From positions 91,988 through 155,987 of the forward strand of contig JAFLBG010000001.1 in NCBI GenBank assembly GCA_017303975.1: 64,000 bases of DNA, given 5' to 3'. A program made the position numbers and the translations under genes. Below the pieces are notes generated by a model, which saw only the letters and a list, made by a program, of their open reading frames with translations, was not told where the DNA came from and made no database searches. Every line of letters begins with the position of its first letter. Positions within the stretch are counted from its first letter, which is position 1. Below are positions 3,150 through 33,741 of the stretch, one piece after another. Origin of the DNA: Bacteroidota bacterium. GTDB taxonomy: Bacteria; Bacteroidota; Bacteroidia; JAFLBG01.

Positions 3150-3635
3150 GTGGAAAAACCATTAATAAATAAAAAATACACATTAGAAAAATTCCATGGC
3201 AAAGGAGGTTGGACCTTTGCGCGTATACCCGAAATTAAACAAGACAAAAAAGCACACTTTGGTTGGAGAAAGGTTAAAGGAACTATTGATGGTTATGAGA
3301 TAAAAAAATACCATTTGATGCCAATGGGTAATGGAATGCTCTTTTTACCTGTGAGAGCGGAGATTCGAAAAAAAATTGGGAAGAAAGAAGGAGATAGTGT
3401 TCATGTAATTTTGTATCCCGACAATGAACCCTTAGAAGTACCGGAGGAAATGTTGCTTTGTATGCAAGATGAACCGGAAGCGTTGCGCTTTTTCAATTCA
3501 ATATCTGAAAGCGAGCGTAAATACTATATACAATGGATTTATTCGGCTAAGAAAGAGGAAACAAAAATAAATAGGCTAGCAAAAACAATCAATAGACTAT
3601 TTAAAGGAATGAAAATGTATGATAAAGAAGAATAA
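3150..3635 (+). CDS. DUF1905 + YdeI/OmpD-associated (DUF1801-like) family protein
   Basis: 161 aa. N-terminal 'KGGWTFARIP...GYEIKKYHLMPMGNGMLFLPV' fits DUF1905. C-terminal 'EPEALRFFNSISESERKYYIQWIYSAKKEETKINRLAKTI' fits the YdeI/OmpD-associated bacteriocin-protection family. Confidence 0.7.
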   Translation: MEKPLINKKYTLEKFHGKGGWTFARIPEIKQDKKAHFGWRKVKGTIDGYEIKKYHLMPMGNGMLFLPVRAEIRKKIGKKEGDSVHVILYPDNEPLEVPEEMLLCMQDEPEALRFFNSISESERKYYIQWIYSAKKEETKINRLAKTINRLFKGMKMYDKEE

Positions 3636-3679
3636 AAATCTATTTAGAATACCGTATTAAAATTTACTCGCAAAAAAAT

Positions 3680-4156
3680 ATGCAACCAAGAATTGAAACG
3701 CTAAAAGAAAAAAAGCTCATTGGTAAAAATTTGAAAGTTTCCCTAACCAATAATAAAACTGTAGAACTGTGGCGTAGTTTTATGCCAAGGCGAAAAGAAA
3801 TAACGAATAATTTGACTACGGAACTGTTTTCCTTGCAAGTTTATGAGCCTTCCTATTTTGATAATTTTAATCCAAGTACAGAATTTGAAAAGTGGGCGTT
3901 AATTGAAGTTCCAGACTTTGAGAAAATTCCCGAAGGAATGCAAGCTTTCACCTTAGTAAGTGGACTGTATGCAGTTTTTTATTACAAAGGATTAAATACA
4001 GATACTAAAATATTTGAATACATTTTTGGAACTTGGCTGCCGAGTTCGGTCTACGTATTAGACCAAAGGCCTCATTTTGAAATAATGGGAGAAAAATATA
4101 AAAATGCCGATCCAAATTCGGAGGAAGAAATTTGGATACCTATAAAACCGAAGTAG
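3680..4156 (+). CDS. GyrI-like small-molecule-binding domain protein (AraC effector-binding fold)
   Basis: 158 aa, two-lobed GyrI-like pattern ('KLIGKNLKVSL...ELWRSFMPRRKEI' and 'YAVFYYKGLNTD...IFGTWLPSS...HFEIMGEKY'). Confidence 0.6.
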   Translation: MQPRIETLKEKKLIGKNLKVSLTNNKTVELWRSFMPRRKEITNNLTTELFSLQVYEPSYFDNFNPSTEFEKWALIEVPDFEKIPEGMQAFTLVSGLYAVFYYKGLNTDTKIFEYIFGTWLPSSVYVLDQRPHFEIMGEKYKNADPNSEEEIWIPIKPK

Positions 4157-4198: not shown

Positions 4199-6280
4199 CT
4201 ATCGAAGCAACGACACGTGTCCCACATACGAATGGCGTCCATCAAATACGTCTAAAACAGCGGCCTTCCAAACATATACATCCTCTTGTGCAAGCGCAGA
4301 TCCATTATTTGCCTTTCCATTCCAAGGAATTGATTTTTCGGGAGATTCTGTTTGTCCTGTTGTATAAACGATGTTTCCCCATCTGTCAAAAATCCATAAT
4401 TGGTATTCTTTTATTCCCATTCCCACACCGTTAAATCCATCGTTATCTAAATCACCGTTAGGGGTAAAACAATTGGGCGCAAAGAAAGTAAAGGTTGGCT
4501 TTACTGTTATTTTTTTTACAGCAGAATCCTTGCAACCAAACTCATTTATTACATAAAGTGTGGTGGTGTATGTTTCTTGTTCGTTAGGATTCTCTAGATA
4601 TGGGAAAATGTGTTTAGGATTAGTTGTAGTAGAATCAACCATTCCATCGCCAAAGTGCCAATAAAATTTAGTTACCCCTGATGATTGGTCTGTATATAAA
4701 ACGGTTGGATCCAAATTGTCGGTTTCACTTGGGTTAATTGTGAAATCGGCATTTGGTATCGGGTATACTGTAATATAATTATTGATATTAAATGTTTGTG
4801 TACAACTCTTGTCTGATGTAACAGTTAACCCTATTCTGTAGCTGCCATCATTTGCAAAACAATGATTGGGATTGGGTTGAAAAGAAGTATTTCCATCTCC
4901 AAAATCCCAAACCCAATTATTTATCGAACCACTATTAATTACTGTCTGGTTTGAAAAGTCTGTGCAAAGCGGCATGCAGCCGGCTAATTTATTTGCAGAA
5001 AAATTTACAATCGCAGTGTCATACACATCTACAATTTTCAGTAAAGAATCTTTACAACCAAAATCACTTTCTACCACCAACTTAACAGTGTATGGGCCGG
5101 AGCCTGTATAGTTGTAATTTCCGTTTTGTGTAGTTAAACTATTGCCATCACCTAGCGACCAATTCCAGCCATTGATGGAGCCATTTGTAATGGAAGATTG
5201 ATCGGTTAAAACAGTTTGTTTTCCTAAGCAAACAGAGGGTGCTGTAAATGCAGCAACAGGAACATCATGTGCCGGAGGAAGCGTGTATGCATAGTTGTAG
5301 GAGCTCACACAAGAAATAAATGGAGTGCATACCAATTGAAAATTACCGGGAACGTTTGTGGTGATACATTGATTTGTTGTATTGATAGGGGTTCCGTTAG
5401 GATCTGTCCATGCATAGTTTTGCATGCCGGCCGGACCACAAATGGTGGTAACACTGTTTCCGCAAAACTCATCTGTTTGCAATACTTTGTTGGCCGGAGC
5501 ACATTCTGCATCTATATAGCAATAAGCCCAATCCACATTATAGACGCACCAGTCGTTAATTACTTCAATAGTTACAGTTTGGTTAACAAAAGGAGTTAAA
5601 TCAATATTTATATTTTGCCATGGAACATAACTTACGGTAAACATTTGTCCCATGGTATTTGGAGCTTGTATTGTTGATGTTGAAAAATTAGGAACACCAA
5701 CGGGCCCTGTTTGTGTAGAATAAAAGCAATCGTAATTAATACAAGAAATAACAGTTCCGGAAGCATCTTTAAATCTTATTTTTAAGCGTGCCGCCTCCGA
5801 TTGCGAGTGAGGATAATTTAAAATACACAAGGCAAATTTTAAAATGAACACAGGTGTTGCTGGGTTTACGATAAATGTTTGCGTTGCCATCGAATTTTGC
5901 ACAACATTAATATCACCCAACTTCAAAGAAAAATTTCCACCAGGACAAACAACGGGAAATCCGCAATAGGGGTCTGTTCCATTGCCTGATGTAATATTGC
6001 TGGGACCTGTAACTGTCCAACCATTTGTATTGCCATATTCAAAGTCCATGTTGGTACAAGAAGCCAATGGCGCTACATTACCGTTGTTTTTGTAGCTAGC
6101 CTGTTCTTGTTTGTTTTTATTGGCTGCGTTAATTTTTTGAATGTAACCCGGGATTAAAGAATCTGGTATTCCATGTTCTTTAAGATGTTTGGCACATCCA
6201 TCGTTGTCAAAATTTGTTGTTGTACTTAATAGTATACTAGAAGTAAACAACAGCAATAAGGCTGGTGTGGTTGCTTTCAT
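4199..6280 (-). CDS. T9SS type-B C-terminal sorting domain protein with three PKD-like domains (secreted adhesin-like)
   Basis: Signal peptide MKATTPALLLLFTSSILLS. Three W.FGDG PKD motifs. C-terminus 'FTPNGDLDNDGF...QLWIFDRWGNIVYTTG...WNGK...YVWK...GHVSLLR' is the classic TIGR04131 gliding-motility-associated CTD. Confidence 0.85.
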   Translation of the reverse strand: MKATTPALLLLFTSSILLSTTTNFDNDGCAKHLKEHGIPDSLIPGYIQKINAANKNKQEQASYKNNGNVAPLASCTNMDFEYGNTNGWTVTGPSNITSGNGTDPYCGFPVVCPGGNFSLKLGDINVVQNSMATQTFIVNPATPVFILKFALCILNYPHSQSEAARLKIRFKDASGTVISCINYDCFYSTQTGPVGVPNFSTSTIQAPNTMGQMFTVSYVPWQNINIDLTPFVNQTVTIEVINDWCVYNVDWAYCYIDAECAPANKVLQTDEFCGNSVTTICGPAGMQNYAWTDPNGTPINTTNQCITTNVPGNFQLVCTPFISCVSSYNYAYTLPPAHDVPVAAFTAPSVCLGKQTVLTDQSSITNGSINGWNWSLGDGNSLTTQNGNYNYTGSGPYTVKLVVESDFGCKDSLLKIVDVYDTAIVNFSANKLAGCMPLCTDFSNQTVINSGSINNWVWDFGDGNTSFQPNPNHCFANDGSYRIGLTVTSDKSCTQTFNINNYITVYPIPNADFTINPSETDNLDPTVLYTDQSSGVTKFYWHFGDGMVDSTTTNPKHIFPYLENPNEQETYTTTLYVINEFGCKDSAVKKITVKPTFTFFAPNCFTPNGDLDNDGFNGVGMGIKEYQLWIFDRWGNIVYTTGQTESPEKSIPWNGKANNGSALAQEDVYVWKAAVLDVFDGRHSYVGHVSLLR

Positions 6281-24296: not shown

Positions 24297-24776
24297 TTAG
24301 TTCGTTAGTTCACCAGTTTTTAGTAAAAAATGGCAACAATAGATAGGTTTGAAGATTTAATAGCTTGGCAAAAAGCTAAAAAATTGGCACTGGGTGTATA
24401 TACTCTTACAAATGTTGGGATTTTTTCTAAAGACTTTGGATTGCGAGATCAAGTGAGGCGATCTTCTATTTCTGTTGTATCTAATATTGCAGAGGGTTTT
24501 GAACGCAAAGGGAACAGAGAGTTTTTACAATTCTTATATATTTCGTTGGGGTCTTTAGGCGAGTTAAAAACTCAAATTGAAATTGCTTTTGAACTCAACT
24601 ATTTTTCAGAAAACGAATACAAAAATATTTTACCCCAAATAACAGAAGTGAGAAAAATTATAAATGGTTTAATTTCTAGTTTAAAGGATAGTGATTTTAA
24701 GGGAATAAAATTTAAGTATTCATAGTACTCGTAAACTGAAATACTAACAAACTGGCAAACTTGAATACTAGTAAAC
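24297..24776 (+). mobile_element. IR-bounded four-helix-bundle cassette 1 (imperfect ~20-bp inverted repeats)
   Basis: Left arm TTAGTTCGTTAGTTCACCAGTTTTTAGTA (24297-24325). Right arm TACTAACAAACTGGCAAACTTGAATACTAG (24747-24776). The reverse complement of the left arm aligns with the right arm at about 17 of 20 positions (tactaa-aaactgg-..aact). Confidence 0.35.
24330..24725 (+). CDS. Four helix bundle protein (TIGR02436 / PF05635 23S rRNA-intervening-sequence protein family), copy 1
   Basis: 'FEDLIAWQKAKKL...VYTLT...FGLRDQVRRSSISVVSNIAEGFERKGNREFLQFLYISLGSLGELKTQIEIAFEL' matches the family consensus. Confidence 0.85.
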   Translation: MATIDRFEDLIAWQKAKKLALGVYTLTNVGIFSKDFGLRDQVRRSSISVVSNIAEGFERKGNREFLQFLYISLGSLGELKTQIEIAFELNYFSENEYKNILPQITEVRKIINGLISSLKDSDFKGIKFKYS

Positions 24777-26246: not shown

Positions 26247-26728
26247 AAAGTTTAAAGTTGGAAAGTTTGAAATCAAATAATATTAATGGCAACAATAGAA
26301 CGATTTGAGGATTTAAAAGTTTGGCAAAAAGCACGACAGCTGAACAAAGAAATATATAAAGTATCTAATACGGGTGCTTTTTCAAAAGATTTTGGATTAC
26401 GCGATCAAATAAGACGTTCAAGTATTTCTATCGTATCTAATATTGCTGAGGGTTATGAAAGAAATGGTACTAAAGAATTCAACCAGTTTTTATCAATAGC
26501 AAAGGCTTCTGCGGCAGAATTAAGAGCGCAGCTTTATGTTTCCTTTGATTTAGAATATATTTCTGAACAAGAATTTAATACCCTAATCTCTATTGTTCTT
26601 GAGGTTAGCAAAATGCTTTCCGGATTAATGAGTTATTTACAAACAACCGAAATAAAAGGGAATAAATTTAAAGAAAGTGCTGAATTGTATGGTACGAATC
26701 AACTTTAAACTTTCCAACTTTAAACTTT
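26247..26728 (+). mobile_element. IR-bounded four-helix-bundle cassette 2 (perfect 22-bp inverted repeats)
   Basis: AAAGTTTAAAGTTGGAAAGTTT at 26247-26268 is the exact reverse complement of AAACTTTCCAACTTTAAACTTT at 26707-26728. The arms enclose the whole 4HB gene. The right arm starts within the stop codon and abuts the sufC start. Confidence 0.5.
26286..26708 (+). CDS. Four helix bundle protein (TIGR02436 / PF05635 family), copy 2
   Basis: 'FEDLKVWQKARQL...IYKVS...FGLRDQIRRSSISIVSNIAEGYERNGTKEFNQFLSIAKASAAELRAQLYVSFDL'. Confidence 0.85.
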   Translation: MATIERFEDLKVWQKARQLNKEIYKVSNTGAFSKDFGLRDQIRRSSISIVSNIAEGYERNGTKEFNQFLSIAKASAAELRAQLYVSFDLEYISEQEFNTLISIVLEVSKMLSGLMSYLQTTEIKGNKFKESAELYGTNQL

Positions 26729-27663: not shown

Positions 27664-28983
27664 ATGAACACAACCATAAAAACAAACATACCAACAGCAC
27701 TTTTAAGCTATCTTGAAAGTACCGCTGCAACACACGCCAATCAATCATTTCGAACCCAAGCGCTTGATAGCTTGTTAAACCAAGGGTTGCCTAACAAAAA
27801 AAGTGAAGAATATAAATATTCTCCGGTAGAAAAATTCTTCAAAGAGTTAAACTTTAGTTCAAAAGGAAATTCGCCTAATGCAGACATATTCAAAACCCTT
27901 AATTATCCTAAGCTACGAGGAGTCGAAGTTTTTGCAATTAATGGAATTATTGTGGCGTCTAGTCACACTGAGCCTGTCGAAGTGTCTGGGAGTACTATTA
28001 AAATCCAATCCCTAAAACAAGCGATGTTAGAAAACAATAAAATCGCAGATACATATCTCGGTCAACTTTCTTCCAAAAACCAAGACCCTTTCATTGCCTT
28101 AAACAATGCAGCTTTTGAAGATGGTATATTTATTCATCTGGAAAAGAACGCAATAGTAGAAGAGCCAATTCACATTATCAATTACGTTACCTCCCAAGAA
28201 AACTGTTTAATTCAACCGCATCATTTATTTGTATTTGAAGAAAACTCTCAAACCACAATTATTGAAACTACTATAATTAAAGGTAGTAGCGTTGGCTTTG
28301 TTTATAATAGTTTGGTGGAAATGCAAGCAGCAGAAAATTCTAAAATAAATTATTATCGCTTGCAGCTGGGATCTAAGTCGGATGATACTAAAAAAGCTGC
28401 AGTATTTAACACACAAATAAATCAAGAGAAAAATTCTACCGTAGATACTAATACAATTACCATCAATACTTCTTGGTTACGCAATAATCATAACATTGTT
28501 TTAAATGGTACCAATTGTGAAGCACATTTAAACGGTTTGTTTTTAATAAACAACCATCAGCACGTTGATAATCACACCTTGGTTGACCACCAGCAACCGC
28601 ATTGCCAAAGCAATCAGTTGTACAAAGGAATTTTAAGTGATAAGTCGACCGGAATATTCAATGGAAAAATATTTGTTCGCAAGGATGCACAAAAAACAAA
28701 TGCATATCAATCAAGCAAAAATATTTTGTTGAGTGACGATGCTACAATCAATGCAAAACCACAATTAGAAATTTATGCCGATGATGTAAAGTGTTCGCAC
28801 GGTTCATCAACAGGCAAGATTGACACGGATGCCCTGTTTTACTTACGTGCACGGGGAGTTGGCGAAGAATCCGCCAGAAGGCTCTTATTACATGCTTTTG
28901 CAAATGATGTGATTGAAACTATAAAAAACGAAGAGTTGCAAATGACTATTAAAGAAATTATAGAAAAGCAACTTTATGTATAA
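27664..28983 (+). CDS. sufD: Fe-S cluster assembly protein SufD
   Basis: 439 aa with SufB/SufD-family C-terminal beta-helix motifs ('ILLSDDATINAKPQLEIYADDVKCSHGSSTGKID'). Confidence 0.9.
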   Translation: MNTTIKTNIPTALLSYLESTAATHANQSFRTQALDSLLNQGLPNKKSEEYKYSPVEKFFKELNFSSKGNSPNADIFKTLNYPKLRGVEVFAINGIIVASSHTEPVEVSGSTIKIQSLKQAMLENNKIADTYLGQLSSKNQDPFIALNNAAFEDGIFIHLEKNAIVEEPIHIINYVTSQENCLIQPHHLFVFEENSQTTIIETTIIKGSSVGFVYNSLVEMQAAENSKINYYRLQLGSKSDDTKKAAVFNTQINQEKNSTVDTNTITINTSWLRNNHNIVLNGTNCEAHLNGLFLINNHQHVDNHTLVDHQQPHCQSNQLYKGILSDKSTGIFNGKIFVRKDAQKTNAYQSSKNILLSDDATINAKPQLEIYADDVKCSHGSSTGKIDTDALFYLRARGVGEESARRLLLHAFANDVIETIKNEELQMTIKEIIEKQLYV

Positions 28984-29056
28984 ACACACCCCTAGCCCCT
29001 CTCAAGAGGGGAACCTACGCACACTTCCCTACTTGAGGAGGAATTATGGAGGTGTA
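28984..29056 (+). repeat. GC-rich ~72-bp REP-like repeat, copy A (two GC hairpins)
   Basis: ACACACCCCTAGCCCCTCTCAAGAGGGGAACCTACGCACACTTCCCTACTTGAGGAGG...GGAGGTGTA. It contains hairpins CCCCTCT-ca-AGAGGGG and a TCCCT.C-ttga-GGAGG stem. About 90% identical to copy B at 29875..29946. A 3' half-copy lies at 29476..29506. Confidence 0.7.
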
Positions 29057-29093
29057 CCACAAGAGTGCAATTATATAAACAACAAATTGGATA

Positions 29094-29507
29094 ATGTTTG
29101 ACATCTGGCACATAGCTATTCCTGTAACTAATATAGAAGAATCCATTTCTTTCTATTGCGATTTTCTTGGCTTCATTTTTATTGGAACCGATGAGAATCA
29201 CAACAAAAAGCAAGCTTTTATTAAAACTCCTGGTGGTAATATGTCTATCGAATTATTTATTGAAAGCAACAGCATTAACAAAAAAATGCCCGATCATATT
29301 GCTTTTGAGTGCGATGATATTGAAACCTACATTAATAAATTAAAAAGCAAAAACGCAACTATTCCTACGCACCTTAATTCTTATGATAATGGTGTTCGCT
29401 TTTTTTCCTTGATAGATCCACAGGGTATTCCTTTGCATTTTTTTAAAGGAAGAAAACTTTATGAAGATTCATTAATTCCCTCCTTGAGGAGGGCCAGGGA
29501 GGTGTAA
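29094..29507 (+). CDS. VOC family protein (glyoxalase/bleomycin-resistance/dioxygenase fold)
   Basis: 'WHIAIPVTNIEESISFYCDFLGF' at the N-terminus and 'DHIAFECDDIETYINKL' fit VOC. The C-terminal 'SLRRAREV*' is encoded by the half-repeat. Confidence 0.65.
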   Translation: MFDIWHIAIPVTNIEESISFYCDFLGFIFIGTDENHNKKQAFIKTPGGNMSIELFIESNSINKKMPDHIAFECDDIETYINKLKSKNATIPTHLNSYDNGVRFFSLIDPQGIPLHFFKGRKLYEDSLIPSLRRAREV

Positions 29508-29512
29508 ATAAT

Positions 29513-29947
29513 ATGAAACATAAATTTATTACATATAACCCAAAACTAAAAGAACTCGCTCGTAGGTTGCGCAACAATAGCACAAAGTCTGAGATTAAGC
29601 TATGGAACTATTTAAAAGGCGATAAATTACTAGGGTATGACTTTCACCGACAAAAGCCTATTGGTAATTATATTTGTGATTTCTTTTGTAAAGAATTAAT
29701 GTTGGCTATTGAGGTGGATGGCTATTCACATACACTAGAAGATGTACAAAAAAAAGATATTGAAAAGCAGAAGTATCTTGAAAGTCTAAACATTACTATT
29801 CTTAGATTTACGGATACAGAAATTTTTGAACAGATTGATAACGTTATTAGAAAAATAGAGCATTGGGTGAGAGAACACACCCCTAGCCCCTCTCAAGAGG
29901 TGAACCTACGCACTTCCCTCCTTGAGGAGGGACTAAGGGAGGTGTAA
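29513..29947 (+). CDS. DUF559 endonuclease-domain protein (Vsr-like PD-(D/E)xK family)
   Basis: 'ARRLRNNSTKSEIKLWNYLKGDKLLGYDFHRQKPIGNYICDFFCKELMLAIEVDGYSH' is the DUF559 signature. The C-terminal 24 aa are translated from repeat copy B. Confidence 0.85.
   Translation: MKHKFITYNPKLKELARRLRNNSTKSEIKLWNYLKGDKLLGYDFHRQKPIGNYICDFFCKELMLAIEVDGYSHTLEDVQKKDIEKQKYLESLNITILRFTDTEIFEQIDNVIRKIEHWVREHTPSPSQEVNLRTSLLEEGLREV
29875..29946 (+). repeat. GC-rich ~72-bp REP-like repeat, copy B
   Basis: Direct repeat of 28984..29056 at about 90% identity. With copy A it brackets the VOC + DUF559 pair. Confidence 0.7.
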
Positions 29948-29968
29948 AATTAAATTAATACTAAAGAG

Positions 29969-31186
29969 TTGTACAACATAACTAACATAAGCGACCAATT
30001 CCCAATACTTTCAGAGAAGGTAAATGGCAAACCATTGGTTTATTTGGACAATGCCGCCACTGTTCAAAAACCAAAACAAGTTATTGATGCTATTGTAAAT
30101 TACTATACACACACCAACGCAAATATTCACAGAGGTGTTCATACGTTGAGTCAAAAAGCTACAGATGCTTATGAGCAAGCACGAAAAAAAGTAGCTGACT
30201 TTATTGGTGCCTCAACTAACGAAATAGTATTTACGCGTGGTACCACAGAATCAATAAATTTAGTTGCGGAAACCTTCGGAAAAAAATTTATTTCAGCAGG
30301 AGATGAAATTGTAATTACAGAAATGGAGCATCACAGTAATATTTTGCCTTGGCAAAAATTATGTGAAGAAAAAGGGGCAAAATTAATTGTTGCACCAATC
30401 AACAACTCTGGAGAATTGATGCTCAATGAATTTGAAAAATTACTCTCCCTAAAAGCCAAGTTGATTGCAATTACCCATGTATCAAACACATTGGGGACAA
30501 TTAATCCAATAAAAAAAATAATAGAATTAGCTCATTCCAAAAATATATTTGTTCTTATAGATGGTGCACAGGCTGTGCCACACCTAAAAGTAAATGTAAA
30601 AGAGCTTGATGCCGATTTCTATTGCTTTAGTGGACACAAGATGTACGCACCTACGGGAATTGGTGCATTGTATATAAAAGAAAAGTGGTTGGCTCAATTG
30701 CCCACTTATCAGATTGGTGGTGGTGTTATAAAAACGGTTTCGTTTACCAAAACAGAATATATAGATGGACCTTTAAAATACGAAGCTGGTACTCCCAATA
30801 TTGCCGGTGCCATAGGACTTAGTGCAGCTATAGATTTTATGAATGAAATTGGTATTGAAACCATTCAGCATCATGAAGAAAAGTTGCTGCGTTATGCAAC
30901 AGAACAAATAACGCAACTGGAAAAAATAAAAATTATTGGGACAGCGACTGAAAAAGCTGGTGTGCTATCCTTCATTGTGGAAGGAGCACATCCATTCGAT
31001 GTTGGAACACTGTTAGATAAAATGGGTATTGCTGTTCGTACGGGACACCACTGCACACAACCCTTGATGGAAAAATATAAAATTCAAGGTACCGTGCGCG
31101 CTTCCTTTGCTTGTTATAATACCATTGAGGAAATAGATGTATTTTTGGAGGGATTAAAAAAGACGATTAGGATGTTAGTTGGGTAA
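29969..31186 (+). CDS. sufS: Cysteine desulfurase SufS (class V aminotransferase)
   Basis: 'FSGHKMYAPTGIGALY' PLP-lysine region and 'RTGHHCTQPLM' active-site Cys loop. Confidence 0.95.
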   Translation: MYNITNISDQFPILSEKVNGKPLVYLDNAATVQKPKQVIDAIVNYYTHTNANIHRGVHTLSQKATDAYEQARKKVADFIGASTNEIVFTRGTTESINLVAETFGKKFISAGDEIVITEMEHHSNILPWQKLCEEKGAKLIVAPINNSGELMLNEFEKLLSLKAKLIAITHVSNTLGTINPIKKIIELAHSKNIFVLIDGAQAVPHLKVNVKELDADFYCFSGHKMYAPTGIGALYIKEKWLAQLPTYQIGGGVIKTVSFTKTEYIDGPLKYEAGTPNIAGAIGLSAAIDFMNEIGIETIQHHEEKLLRYATEQITQLEKIKIIGTATEKAGVLSFIVEGAHPFDVGTLLDKMGIAVRTGHHCTQPLMEKYKIQGTVRASFACYNTIEEIDVFLEGLKKTIRMLVG

Positions 31187-31198
31187 TAAAAGGTGGGT

Positions 31199-31652
31199 GA
31201 TTGACTAGTCCGATAGTCTGTTAGTCAATTAGTCAGAAAGCTTACAGTAAATGAATTATGGCAACGATACAAAAATTTGAAGATATTGTAGCTTGGCAAA
31301 AGGCGAGGGAATTAAATAAGCGGATTTATTTGCTTACAACCAACTCTGCGATTGCAAAGGATTATGGATTACGCGACCAAATGAGAAGATGTTCAATTTC
31401 TGTGATGTCGAATATTGCAGAAGGATTTGAAAGAACCGGAGATAAAGAGTTTGCAAGATTTTTGAGCATTGCGATGGGATCGTGTGCCGAATTAAAGTCA
31501 CAACTTTATGCAGCACTGGATGTTGGATTTATAACTGAAATGGAATTTAATTCAGTTGTTATTCTCGTTGATGAAACTGGAAAGTTAATACAATCATTCA
31601 GAAAATATTTACGACTAACAGACTAGCGGACTTTTTAACTAACAGACTATAA
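31199..31652 (+). mobile_element. IR-bounded four-helix-bundle cassette 3 (19/20-bp inverted repeats, duplicated arm motif)
   Basis: AGTCCGATAGTCTGTTAGTC (31207-31226) pairs with GACTAACAGACTAGCGGACT (31613-31632), matching at 19 of 20 positions. A second unit, TAACTAACAGACTAT (about 31637-31651), pairs with ATAGTCTGTTAGTCA. The arms bracket the 4HB gene between the sufS stop and the sufE start. Confidence 0.5.
31258..31626 (+). CDS. Four helix bundle protein (TIGR02436 / PF05635 family), copy 3
   Basis: 'FEDIVAWQKARELNKRIYLLT...YGLRDQMRRCSISVMSNIAEGFERTGDKEFARFLSIAMGSCAELKSQLYAALDV'. Confidence 0.85.
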   Translation: MATIQKFEDIVAWQKARELNKRIYLLTTNSAIAKDYGLRDQMRRCSISVMSNIAEGFERTGDKEFARFLSIAMGSCAELKSQLYAALDVGFITEMEFNSVVILVDETGKLIQSFRKYLRLTD

Positions 31653-32084
31653 ATGACAATAAGCGCCATAGAAAAAGAAATTATAGACGAGTTTTCCTTA
31701 TTTGATAATGACTGGGAAAGTAAGTACGAGCACCTTATCGATTTAGGGAAGTCTCTTCCGTTAATTAACGAAAAGTACAAAACAGAAGATAGGCTTATAA
31801 AAGGCTGTCAAAGTCGTGTTTGGCTTCATTCAGAATTGAAAAATGATACTATTGTGTTCACCGCAGACAGTGACGCTATCATAACTAAGGGTATTGTAGC
31901 ACTTTTGATTCGTGTGTTGTCAAACCAAACTTCTGAAAATATTATAAATGCAAAGTTAGACTTTATAGATAAAATTGGATTGAAAGAGCACCTCTCACCT
32001 ACACGAGCCAATGGTTTGGTTAGTATGATAAAACAAATGAAACTGGATGCAATAATCCTAAAACAAAATGAAAATGAAGAATAA
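31653..32084 (+). CDS. sufE: SufE family cysteine desulfuration (sulfur acceptor) protein
   Basis: 'LIKGCQSRVWLHSEL...IFTADSDAIITKGIVALL' carries the conserved Cys of SufE. Confidence 0.85.
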   Translation: MTISAIEKEIIDEFSLFDNDWESKYEHLIDLGKSLPLINEKYKTEDRLIKGCQSRVWLHSELKNDTIVFTADSDAIITKGIVALLIRVLSNQTSENIINAKLDFIDKIGLKEHLSPTRANGLVSMIKQMKLDAIILKQNENEE

Positions 32085-33741
32085 TTATGATTTTGTAAGT
32101 GATTTCTATGAAGATATAGCGCTTGTTTTAAAAAACAATAAACTAGGAATTATAGATAAAGAAGGCGAACTAATTTTACCACCTACTAAATATACCTATG
32201 TAGGTAGTGTAAGCAAGCTGAATGAAGAGTTTATTAACGGCATGAAGAGAGATGGACTTATTGTTATTTCCATTGATGGTAAATTTGGATTTATTGATAA
32301 AACCGGAAAGGAAATAATTCCCATAATATATGATCAGATTAATTATTTCTATGGGGATTTATACATAGTTAAAAAGGATGAAAAGTTTGGATTAATTGAC
32401 AAAGGAGTGAAGCAAATTGTTCCTATGATTTATGACTCCATTAACTCAATACCCAATAATGGTAAATACGATTACGCAACAAACACTATTTCATACCCTG
32501 TTGATGGGTATTACCAGGTTACAAAAGGTGACAAGTTTGGTTTTATCAATTATAAAGGAGTTGAAACGGTGCCTGTTGAATATGATTATGATGATTATAC
32601 AATTCAAATTGATGAGGATGTGATAAGTGTTAGTAAAAACGGGAAGTGGGGAATAATAAATATGCACAACGAGGTGGTAGTTCCATTTGTTTATGACTCG
32701 ATAAAGGAATCAAGAGGGCTTGGTGTATTTCCTGCAATGAAAAATGACGCATGGGGTATTATTGATAAAACCGGAAAGGAAATAGCTCCATTAATATATG
32801 ATGACGCATATAATAATTTTAGTGATTTTTCTGTGGTTCAGAAGGATGAAAAATTTGGTGGTATAGATCCTTCGGGGAAACTTATTATAGAATTAATTTA
32901 TGATGAATTTCAAGTAGATCCTTATGATGGGGAACCTGTGCTAATCTCAGAAGGAATATTTTCCGTTAAAAAAGATGGCAAATGGGGGCATTTAGCGGTT
33001 TCAGGAAAAGAAATAACACCAACTATTTATGATAGTGCTGGTTCCTTCAGAAATGGAACCGCATTAGTTAGGGTCAAAGATAAGATCGGCAGGGTTAATG
33101 CGAATGGAGACGAAGTAATTCCATGTAAATATGGGAAACTACAAGCTTTTGAAGATGATAAATTTTTTATTGCCTCTACGAAAAAAGGCTTCGTAAACAA
33201 CAAGACCAATGGTGTTATAAATAACAAAGGAGAAATCGTTGTTCCATTGGAATACGAATTCATTAGCCCGTTATCTATTACTAATTTGGTGGGAGTAATG
33301 AAAGATGATAAAGTAGGATGCATAGATCTCTTTACTAAAAAAGATATTATCCCTATTATTTATGATCGCATAGGCACATTGGATAATGAGCACGAACGAA
33401 AAACTTTCGCAACTGAAACGGGTGAAACGCTGGAAGAGAAAACACATCCGTTTTTACTACGGGTTTTAAAAGACGAAAAGGTCGGGGTTTTTGATAAAAC
33501 CGGAAAAACAATAATTCCGATAGAATACGATGCGGTAAACCCAATAACAGAAGGGGATTTGTGGTTATTTGAACTAGTTAAAGAAGGGAAACTAGGTATT
33601 ATGAACGAGTCGGGAAAATTAATTTTGCCACTTGAGTTTGATGATAAAGCGGTACTTCTGAAGAGAGGAATCTTAACTCTTGAAAAAAATGGAACAACCT
33701 TTTCGTTTAATCAAGAGGGAACGAAAATAGAAAATGTATAG
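32068..33741 (+). CDS. WG-containing (KWG) repeat protein
   Basis: At least 12 tandem ~35-aa repeats of the form 'KFGFIDKTGKEIIPIIYD' (PF14903). Confidence 0.8.
   Translation: MKMKNNYDFVSDFYEDIALVLKNNKLGIIDKEGELILPPTKYTYVGSVSKLNEEFINGMKRDGLIVISIDGKFGFIDKTGKEIIPIIYDQINYFYGDLYIVKKDEKFGLIDKGVKQIVPMIYDSINSIPNNGKYDYATNTISYPVDGYYQVTKGDKFGFINYKGVETVPVEYDYDDYTIQIDEDVISVSKNGKWGIINMHNEVVVPFVYDSIKESRGLGVFPAMKNDAWGIIDKTGKEIAPLIYDDAYNNFSDFSVVQKDEKFGGIDPSGKLIIELIYDEFQVDPYDGEPVLISEGIFSVKKDGKWGHLAVSGKEITPTIYDSAGSFRNGTALVRVKDKIGRVNANGDEVIPCKYGKLQAFEDDKFFIASTKKGFVNNKTNGVINNKGEIVVPLEYEFISPLSITNLVGVMKDDKVGCIDLFTKKDIIPIIYDRIGTLDNEHERKTFATETGETLEEKTHPFLLRVLKDEKVGVFDKTGKTIIPIEYDAVNPITEGDLWLFELVKEGKLGIMNESGKLILPLEFDDKAVLLKRGILTLEKNGTTFSFNQEGTKIENV

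Follow-up and report, generated by a model that had tools for sequence, protein, structure and literature searches.

The sufD-sufS junction of a Bacteroidota bacterium (assembly GCA_017303975.1, contig JAFLBG010000001.1) carries a 985-bp insert, which occupies positions 28984-29968 of the 64,000-nucleotide stretch of DNA that was analysed and that we refer to as the window. Here we present evidence that this insert is probably a composite copy belonging to a selfish system in which the enzyme is a Vsr-like PD-(D/E)xK nuclease of the DUF559 family and which is organised in the manner of repetitive extragenic palindromic sequences (REPs) with their REP-associated tyrosine transposases (RAYTs) or of miniature inverted-repeat transposable elements (MITEs), with a captured VOC/glyoxalase-fold gene as additional cargo. 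The core of such a system would be a unit of about 0.45 kb, in which an inverted copy of a hairpin motif termed M, the DUF559 nuclease gene and a second M follow one another. M without the gene exists too, in solo copies, in doublets joined head-to-head or tail-to-tail and in mosaic arrays. The DUF559 family, one of "unknown function", is very large and routinely annotated as "very-short-patch-repair endonuclease". A large subfamily with its own hairpin ends, changes of site and gene-less derivatives gives this family a concrete, testable role.

The insert had been noticed in a first-pass annotation, made from the letters of the window alone, which described a gene pair between sufD and sufS bracketed by REP-like direct repeats and stated, as established background, that DUF559 genes are recognised selfish insertions. 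We found no such statement in the literature searched, and the support for DUF559 genes as selfish insertions is the data of the present analysis. Queries with M motif strings, DUF559 mobility and Vsr-like elements with inverted repeats also returned nothing from that literature, subscription journals lying outside it. The term REP-like proved apt; what the annotation missed was the spread of M over several phyla and the one-off status of the VOC gene.

The DUF559 gene and its M ends

The first-pass annotation took a 72-bp direct repeat as the unit. Such repeats do bracket the gene pair, but the recurrent unit is the 30-nt motif M, usually found as an inverted pair around DUF559, and the 72-mer is a doublet consisting of M followed by a diverged inverted copy, rcM′. 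The left arm of the 72-mer, M, reads ACACACCCCTAG-CCCCTC-TCAA-GAGGGG-AA, and the right arm, rcM′, reads TTCCCTCC-TTGA-GGAGGGA-CTAAGGGAGGTGT; rcM′ is identical to the reverse complement of M at 26 of 36 positions. The head that precedes the hairpin of M exists in two variants, ACAC(A)CCCC and ACCCACCCC, and that of the window M is ACACACCCC.

In Arenibacter, in Lutibacter and in a metagenome-assembled genome (MAG), an inverted M precedes the start of every DUF559 gene by 10-50 nt, and another M encodes the last 10 codons of the gene. These M copies are identical or nearly so to the window M, and a 30-mer identical to 28984-29013 is present in all three sets of loci, while the proteins are only about 60% identical. 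To our strict M detector we also submitted 78 full DUF559 genes from independent metagenomic loci, collected by protein similarity alone with the motif unused. Both ends carried M in 46 of them, one end in 22 and neither in 10, so that 68 of the 78 bear at least one copy and the expectation that DUF559 genes elsewhere would carry the repeat is confirmed. An inverted M stood upstream of the gene in 53 of these loci, at the same position as a half copy of the repeat in the window.

The two ends are related to each other and to the protein between them. Of 40 elements, 38 have matching head variants (ACAC vs ACCCAC) at their left and right ends (Fisher p=3e-8), and the end type is shared with the nearest protein neighbour in 33 of 38 (permutation p<0.0005). 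Between elements, nucleotide identity is 80-81% in the ends and 64% in the coding DNA; the two ends of one element are 87% identical. By these comparisons, gene and ends are inherited together, in a single unit of about 0.45 kb, which in the window corresponds to 29476-29904. A plain inverted M pair around the gene is the commonest layout, and a recurrent minority of DUF559 genes lie between direct repeats of the M family, 36-143 nt long (for example loci L213, L215 and L173). In 29 of 34 assessable loci, DUF559 points the same way as the gene upstream of it, and the neighbours are diverse, including suf, argH/GH130, glycosyltransferase and rarA/rhomboid genes.

The motif also leaves its mark on the proteins. 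DUF559 homologues at about 60% identity nearly all end in ...EKHTPNPSQEGN*, which is translated M. Among the tails of 120 homologues, 85 contain ..TPxPSQEG.., 20 stop inside the head, 4 use another frame or a stem variant (NTPLPLSRGE, THPQPLQGGE) and 11 have no M-like tail. The stop codon lies 1 to 13 residues past PSQEG, and one and the same DNA motif is read in different frames, as HTPNPSQEGN or as NTPLPLSRGE. The apparent conservation of HTPxPSQEG, which makes up the left half of the tail, sits in the DNA and not in the protein, and the C-terminal tails of both the VOC and the DUF559 products are most simply read as translated repeat DNA rather than functional peptide. The first-pass annotation had likewise judged these tails probably non-functional, which agrees with their differing frames and with stops at varying points in or after the motif. 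It had also noted that both open reading frames (ORFs) of the insert end in ...REV* inside the repeat, as they do by way of AGG GAG GTG TAA; this ending is unique to the locus and was not seen as conserved protein across homologues.

The window protein is a clear member of DUF559 (102.8 bits against a cut-off of 20.6 for PF04480), and its match in the Protein Data Bank, the "endonuclease-like protein" 3HRL (E=3.4e-19), is the only solved relative. Across 40 homologues, residues D56, E67, G70, H73, K85 and R98 are invariant and D69 nearly so; the window protein has every one of them and carries a PD-(D/E)xK-type core (D...ExDG..H). Its Pfam matches are DUF559, MTES_1575, DUF5889 and DUF2726, with no match to the Vsr profile (PF03852), and the C5-cytosine methylase partner expected of a Vsr enzyme is absent from the flanking genes sufD, VOC and sufS.

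Site occupancy differs between strains

Between-strain differences in occupied sites provide evidence of element movement. Arenibacter strains have one, two or three DUF559 genes between a rarA-like gene (MgsA/RarA-type AAA ATPase) and a rhomboid gene. Two kinds of module make up this region, S of 146 nt and D (with DUF559) of 424 nt, in an order that varies by strain, and every module boundary is a 16-nt core hairpin.

A second case comes from two strains of one metagenome, L009 and L137, whose flanks are 96-97% identical and which differ at two sites. At the argH/GH130 junction, L009 holds an 833-bp insert (S, inverted M, DUF559, M, S) and L137 is empty. Downstream of GH130 it is L137 that has the longer array (S-core-D-core-S-core-S...), L009 having S-core-S only. 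The L009 insert is flanked by a 62-63-nt direct duplication of the 3′ end of argH (3746-3808 and 4580-4642, 98% identical), of which L137 has a single copy and no insert (about 630-700). This duplication is far longer than an ordinary target-site duplication.

M copies without the gene

M occurs far beyond DUF559 genes. A scan of 185,579 species genomes with a 17-nt core matched at least 120 stretches. These come from Bacteroidota, Ignavibacteria, Planctomycetota, Verrucomicrobiota, Patescibacteria, Gammaproteobacteria and further groups, and the full head-plus-hairpin motif is present in most; all counts of M given here are samples and not totals. The possibility that the repeat is confined to the sufD-sufS locus, which would have spoken against an insertion mechanism based on it, is therefore not borne out, M being present at many loci and at other DUF559 genes. 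Motif-bearing loci have, away from the seeds, about 3.7 further M copies per 100 kb, and the 64-kb window has one M-bearing locus. Phages are poor candidates as vehicles, with only 40 M stretches in 2.9 million viral contigs and DUF559 in none of them.

Among the matches listed, DUF559 lies in the same stretch as M in 16 of 146. Even so, across 160 motif-seeded loci it is the only gene family that recurs beside M at bacterial loci (7 loci); two smaller neighbour clusters, one of 5 loci and one of 4, are represented on IMG/VR contigs. The neighbour clusters, formed without a Pfam scan, included no recognisable HUH-like family. The spacing of adjacent M copies is structured. Pairs with heads facing number 27 at 0-60 nt, as gene-less mini-elements, and 24 at 251-700 nt, nearly all of them enclosing DUF559; a further 24 pairs have their hairpins facing at less than 60 nt, the type of the window doublet. 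The combination of stems in the window doublet, CCCCTC with CCCTCC, is also found in doublets at L031, L063, L156 and L179. Solo M copies lie inside long ORFs in 10 of 66 cases, and their strand bias relative to neighbouring genes is not significant (18 vs 9).

One alternative is that M is a host-level, REP-like structural element, acting for example in stabilising mRNA 3′ ends, in attenuating translation or in binding nucleoid or topoisomerase proteins, and that it is spread and maintained by host processes or by some other enzyme. DUF559 genes would then merely insert by preference into M palindromes, in the way of IS1397 and ISPpu9 with REPs, and have no part in the propagation of M. This would suit the fact that most M copies, among the matches listed, are far from any DUF559 gene, as well as the lack of strand bias of the solo copies and the location of the DUF559 bodies exactly at core hairpins in arrays; moreover, REPs are known targets of insertion sequences (ISs) (PMC1525189). 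We nevertheless consider it unlikely. The heads (ACACACCCC) point towards the gene without exception, and they vary in step between the two ends and with the clade of the protein, which argues that the ends are inherited with the gene and are not pre-existing targets. In addition, M is nearly identical across phyla, whereas host-specific structural repeats are normally lineage-specific, and no U-tract or terminator signal follows it.

M-bracketed cargo other than DUF559 exists and is rare. At L187 (751-3008), an N6/N4 DNA methylase gene (Pfam E=8e-51) and a 198-aa ORF each stand between an inverted M and an M, directly upstream of a likewise bracketed DUF559, forming a three-cassette array. 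At L007 (3116-3690), an inverted M (3176-3201) lies in frame within a group-1 glycosyltransferase ORF (..NPLLRGARGVL..) whose stop codon is in another M copy (3660-3687), so that the C-terminal part of a host gene is bracketed like a cassette. On the IMG/VR contig UViG_2636415943_000003, where 44 kb contain 10 or more M copies and the parts covered lack DUF559, M is found within tandem repeats of 116 nt and 230 nt (L239 2150-2420, L253 7700-8300), in a region that also holds another repeat, GTCATTCCGAATGCAGCGCAGCGAAATTGAGGAATCTC.

Arrays of this kind recall integrons. The 72-nt doublets might be folded recombination sites of an integron- or dif-like module, separating promoterless cassettes, the VOC gene among them and DUF559 just one of several, whose excision as circles and integration would be the work of a recombinase supplied in trans or of RecA on the direct repeats. 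The resemblance lies in co-oriented promoterless ORFs between directly oriented imperfect palindromes able to fold as single strands, in the doublets present on both sides of DUF559 at several loci, in the three bracketed cassettes of L187 and in a module order that is variable and shuffled between Arenibacter strains. Such a module remains improbable. The annotated ORFs at 24.3-32.1 kb of the window (suf genes, PF05635, VOC and DUF559) include no integrase-like gene and no IntI; M is unrelated to attC; cargo is almost always DUF559, other cargo being rare and non-recurrent; the commonest layout is a plain inverted pair and not direct sites; and the relatives of the VOC gene are found without M.

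Layout of the insert

The features of the insert are listed in the table below, in the order sufD, M-rcM′, VOC, rcM′, DUF559, M-rcM′, sufS. Both flanking genes define its limits. SufD is complete at its C-terminus, ending where its relatives end, and M of repeat A begins with the base that directly follows the sufD stop; the N-terminus of SufS is about 9 residues shorter than in relatives. Relatives from three groups, with SufD 49-53% identical, have no gap between the two genes, the stop of sufD directly adjoining or overlapping the start of sufS, and all of 28984-29968 is therefore inserted DNA, as the first-pass annotation had proposed. Its suggestion that related strains lacking the insert be compared could be followed in part: distant relatives have sufD touching sufS, but the collections contain no close relative with an empty site (SufD at most 53%).

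Table. Features of the insert and its borders in the window
Feature	Position	Strand	Remarks
sufD	27664-28983	+	left boundary of the insert; full length; stop TAA 28981-28983; Pfam SUFBD_core E=3.5e-78
M copy, left half of repeat A	28984-29013	+	head ACACACCCC, linker TAG, hairpin CCCCTC-TCAA-GAGGGG intact, then AA
rcM′, right half of repeat A	29025-29056	-	inverted diverged M, CCCTCC type; hairpin broken by point changes
VOC/glyoxalase-fold gene	29094-29507	+	Pfam Glyoxalase E=1.7e-14; read as passenger cargo
rcM′ half copy	29476-29506	-	left terminal inverted repeat of the DUF559 unit; hairpin CCCTCC-TTGA-GGAGGG intact
DUF559 (Vsr-like PD-(D/E)xK) nuclease gene	29513-29947	+	Pfam PF04480 E=1.2e-29
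M copy, left half of repeat B	29875-29904	+	right terminal inverted repeat of the DUF559 unit; encodes HTPSPSQEVN
rcM′, right half of repeat B	29914-29946	-	hairpin TCCCTCC-TTGA-GGAGGGA intact
sufS	29969-31186	+	right boundary of the insert; Pfam Aminotran_5 E=1.4e-149; TTG start

Repeats A (28984-29056) and B (29875-29946) are direct repeats 891 bp apart and are identical at 66 of 74 positions (89%), in line with the roughly 90% reported before. Their GC content is 53% for A and 57% for B, a little below the 60% that had been claimed, in a window of 36.1% GC, which matches the earlier figure of 36%. A 23-mer common to A and B, one occurrence in each, is found twice in the window against 0.00 expected by chance. 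The half copy had been correctly recognised as a 3′ half of the repeat; it matches the right arm of B at 30 of 35 positions and lies 6 nt ahead of the DUF559 ATG. Two direct repeats at this distance might be taken for a local tandem duplication or slippage of no wider meaning, a notion with next to no chance of being right, since the DNA between A and B is unduplicated, the VOC and DUF559 genes are unrelated and the same motif is present at hundreds of unrelated loci.

Both genes of the insert read into the repeats. The last 9 or so codons of the VOC gene (IPSLRRAREV*) come from the rcM′ half copy, and the last 27 codons of DUF559 are read from M, the spacer and rcM′. No stop follows M of repeat B, and the DUF559 ORF therefore runs on into rcM′, which supplies ...LLEEGLREV and, together with base 29947, the TAA stop (29945-29947). 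We read the VOC gene as a one-off passenger between two rcM′ copies. A word-sharing search of 5.8 billion proteins returned no close homologue of it. A role as regular cargo was considered and rejected: its 18 distant relatives (E<=1e-10, at most 45% identity) have no M-type tail and end in ..GR.IYE...

The insert appears to depend on its host operon. It has no TAnnTTTG, the Bacteroidota -7 motif, on the + strand ahead of VOC or DUF559, the sole + strand match (29669-29676) lying inside the DUF559 ORF, and it contains no terminator-like site. Lacking a promoter and terminator of its own and being co-oriented with the operon, the cassette is probably expressed by read-through, which is the simplest inference.

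Structure of the repeat

The two arms of the 72-mer are mutually inverted, and the whole therefore folds as a single long imperfect palindrome, with z = -3.7 and -4.2 for repeats A and B folded as RNA and z = -2.3 and -2.4 folded as DNA. The first-pass annotation saw two GC-rich hairpins in each copy. Both are there, but they are not both intact, one having been point-mutated in each copy: in A the second (TCCCTAC/GGAGGAA) and in B, by one change, the first (CCCCTC/GAGGTG). Folded as DNA, the M hairpin reaches -5.4 kcal/mol in A and -1.6 kcal/mol (z = 0) in B. With two of the four hairpins that flank the genes mutated, the window copy is probably decaying.

In a long form of M, the head and the core are separated by an additional hairpin (for example at L025, L036, L039, L045, L062, L078, L081 and L122). 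Its sequence is variable and its pairing is kept (GCCC/GGGC, GGCGC/GCGCC, GTCC/GGAC and others), stems of at least 5 bp occurring in 41% of cases against 11% in shuffles. In ten cases its loop reads TTC and in none GAA; this asymmetry between the strands hints that M may act in single-stranded form. A description of these loops as UUCG tetraloops was rejected, as they are TTC triloops on 4-bp stems and not classical c(UUCG)g. Of 170 unique M hairpins, 156 pair perfectly by Watson-Crick rules, and G-T wobbles on the M strand are absent from all of them. With so many perfect stems and no wobbles, the asymmetry of G-U wobbles was uninformative as a test for RNA structure. The Rfam collection gave no family at gathering threshold for the window repeat (the top hit, whalefall-1, has 18.5 bits against 37) and no match for M at eight further loci. 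At L156 (731-794, - strand), downstream of a DUF559 element and with no M overlap, a match to DUF3800-VIII RNA comes near the threshold, with 36.5 bits where the gathering score is 40.2 (E=0.004).

The ends could also act in RNA, pairing in the operon transcript so that RNase III cuts the stem and the small ORF is excised from the polycistronic mRNA, leaving the host genes unharmed. The intervening sequences of 23S rRNA with PF05635 genes are a precedent for RNA excision, and three PF05635 genes, each inside its own inverted repeat, are present in the same suf operon; the co-orientation of DUF559 with its upstream gene and the one-sided TTC loops of the long form, whose sequence otherwise varies, would fit as well. 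We nevertheless hold an RNA role of this kind to be very improbable. The stems of M are perfect in 156 of 170 hairpins and free of wobbles, solo and doublet M lie on either strand relative to genes, no Rfam family matches, and an RNA role leaves the spread of the motif unexplained.

Comparison with known systems

The closest known organisation is that of REPs, of their inverted doublets (REPINs) with RAYTs, and of bacterial interspersed mosaic elements (BIMEs) (PMC2817692, PMC3116915, PMC3333891). A RAYT gene always lies between two inverted REPs, a REP consists of a head and a palindrome, REPs can be dimorphic and BIMEs flank the gene (PMC2817692). Likewise, M consists of a conserved head and a GC-rich imperfect palindrome, DUF559 lies between two inverted M copies that are near its stop codon or overlap it, a single gene can be flanked by two variants of the repeat, gene-less M singlets and inverted doublets are dispersed in intergenic DNA, and the M variant tracks the protein phylogeny. 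As in BIMEs, clusters of M alternate in orientation with linker modules, as in the core/S/D arrays of Arenibacter and the core-S arrays of L137. The differences concern first of all the enzyme, a DUF559/Vsr-like PD-(D/E)xK nuclease in place of an HUH Y1 (IS200/IS605-like) transposase, and the head, ACAC(A)CCCC in place of GT(A/G)G or CGTC. Furthermore, DUF559 is often multi-copy and tandem whereas RAYTs are typically single-copy, M is one nearly invariant motif across phyla whereas REPs are lineage-specific, and the density of M is apparently lower, at about 3-4 per 100 kb in motif-carrying loci.

Other mobile elements share part of this organisation. As in ISs and MITEs, inverted ends of 26-30 nt surround a single small ORF, gene-less versions retain the same ends and site occupancy varies between strains. 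Unlike them, the elements have no known transposase fold (only DUF559-type profiles match), show no short target-site duplication in about 50 cases, measure only about 0.45 kb and have ends that are more conserved than the gene. Vsr, DUF559 and the homing endonuclease I-Bth0305I form one PD-(D/E)xK clade (PMC3424549), and free-standing homing endonuclease genes of the I-Bth0305I family resemble DUF559 in being small nuclease genes of that fold clade wedged between operon genes, sporadic in distribution and reliant on host transcription. They differ in that DUF559 is flanked by inverted hairpin repeats and has no single conserved host target, its contexts ranging over suf, arg, glycosyltransferase and rarA/rhomboid genes. 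These contexts are unrelated, and any homing target would have to be M itself. The PF05635 cassettes are again small ORFs inside inverted repeats and interrupt the same suf operon three times, but each has its own AT-rich repeat, whereas M is one GC-rich motif common to all DUF559 elements.

Proposed history and mechanism

For the insert we consider the following order of events the likeliest. A 72-nt M-rcM′ doublet would first have come to lie at the sufD-sufS junction. A unit consisting of rcM′, DUF559 and M would then have entered the centre of this doublet or recombined with it, which would leave a doublet on each side, and the VOC gene would have been captured between two rcM′ copies. Stepwise, repeat-mediated insertion, as the first-pass annotation had envisaged, is thus a plausible history. 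As for the mechanism, we can only speculate that the nuclease might nick or cut M hairpins or palindromes, and that the gene-bearing unit might then be copied or recombined into gene-less M sites in a homing-like manner.

Several points weigh against a selfish system driven by the nuclease. To our knowledge there is no precedent for a lone PD-(D/E)xK nuclease acting as a transposase, and we are aware of no DUF559 protein with an activity on M. Among the matches listed, some 90% of M copies lie at more than a few kb from any DUF559. The 62-nt host duplication at L009 fits neither classical transposition nor simple homing, some 50 elements show no short target-site duplication beyond the TT...AA of the repeat itself, and the copy-number changes in arrays could be explained by ordinary unequal crossing-over. 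Genomes no more than about 70% identical share some elements at the same locus; these elements can therefore persist for long, which fits domestication as well as selfishness. The M detector requires perfect stems, so that the hairpin conservation it reports is partly circular. Finally, no true empty site for the sufD-sufS locus exists in the collections, the closest SufD match having 53% identity. Nevertheless, a structural-repeat, an integron-like and an RNA-processing role each explain less of the data than does a REP/RAYT-like or MITE-like selfish system based on the nuclease.

A more far-reaching proposal is that DUF559 and M represent a second, independently evolved system of the REPIN/RAYT type, present across phyla, in which a Vsr-like nuclease recognises and propagates a hairpin repeat. 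We put this forward tentatively, as possible but doubtful. If true, few autonomous mobile elements of bacteria would be as small as this unit of about 0.45 kb (inverted M, gene, M), and hundreds of protein tails of the "HTPNPSQEGN" type in databases would be explained. The REP/RAYT idea, in which a population of hairpin repeats is kept up by a nuclease, would also be widened to non-HUH enzymes and to bacteria outside the Proteobacteria. For the biochemistry of DUF559, M offers a defined DNA substrate. For annotation, tails such as ..HTPNPSQEGN and ..REV and several "fusions" are best regarded as translated repeat DNA.

Other features of the suf operon

Essential operons such as suf tolerate several such cassettes. 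Three PF05635 genes ("23S rRNA intervening sequence protein", a four-helix bundle) are present in the suf operon of the window, upstream of sufB (24330-24700), in the sufB/sufC gap (26286-26708) and in the sufS/sufE gap (31258-31626). The AT-rich inverted repeats around them lie at 24291-24319/24757-24785, 26246-26271/26704-26729 (96% complementary) and 31207-31234/31613-31650, respectively. Relatives L013 and L014 have a PF05635 gene in the sufS/sufE gap, and L011 and L015 have none. Right after sufE, a 557-aa ORF (32068-33741) is made of repeats of about 34 residues (..KDGKWG.ID..G..IIP..YD..), seen in the DNA as the direct-repeat families D2 and D4.

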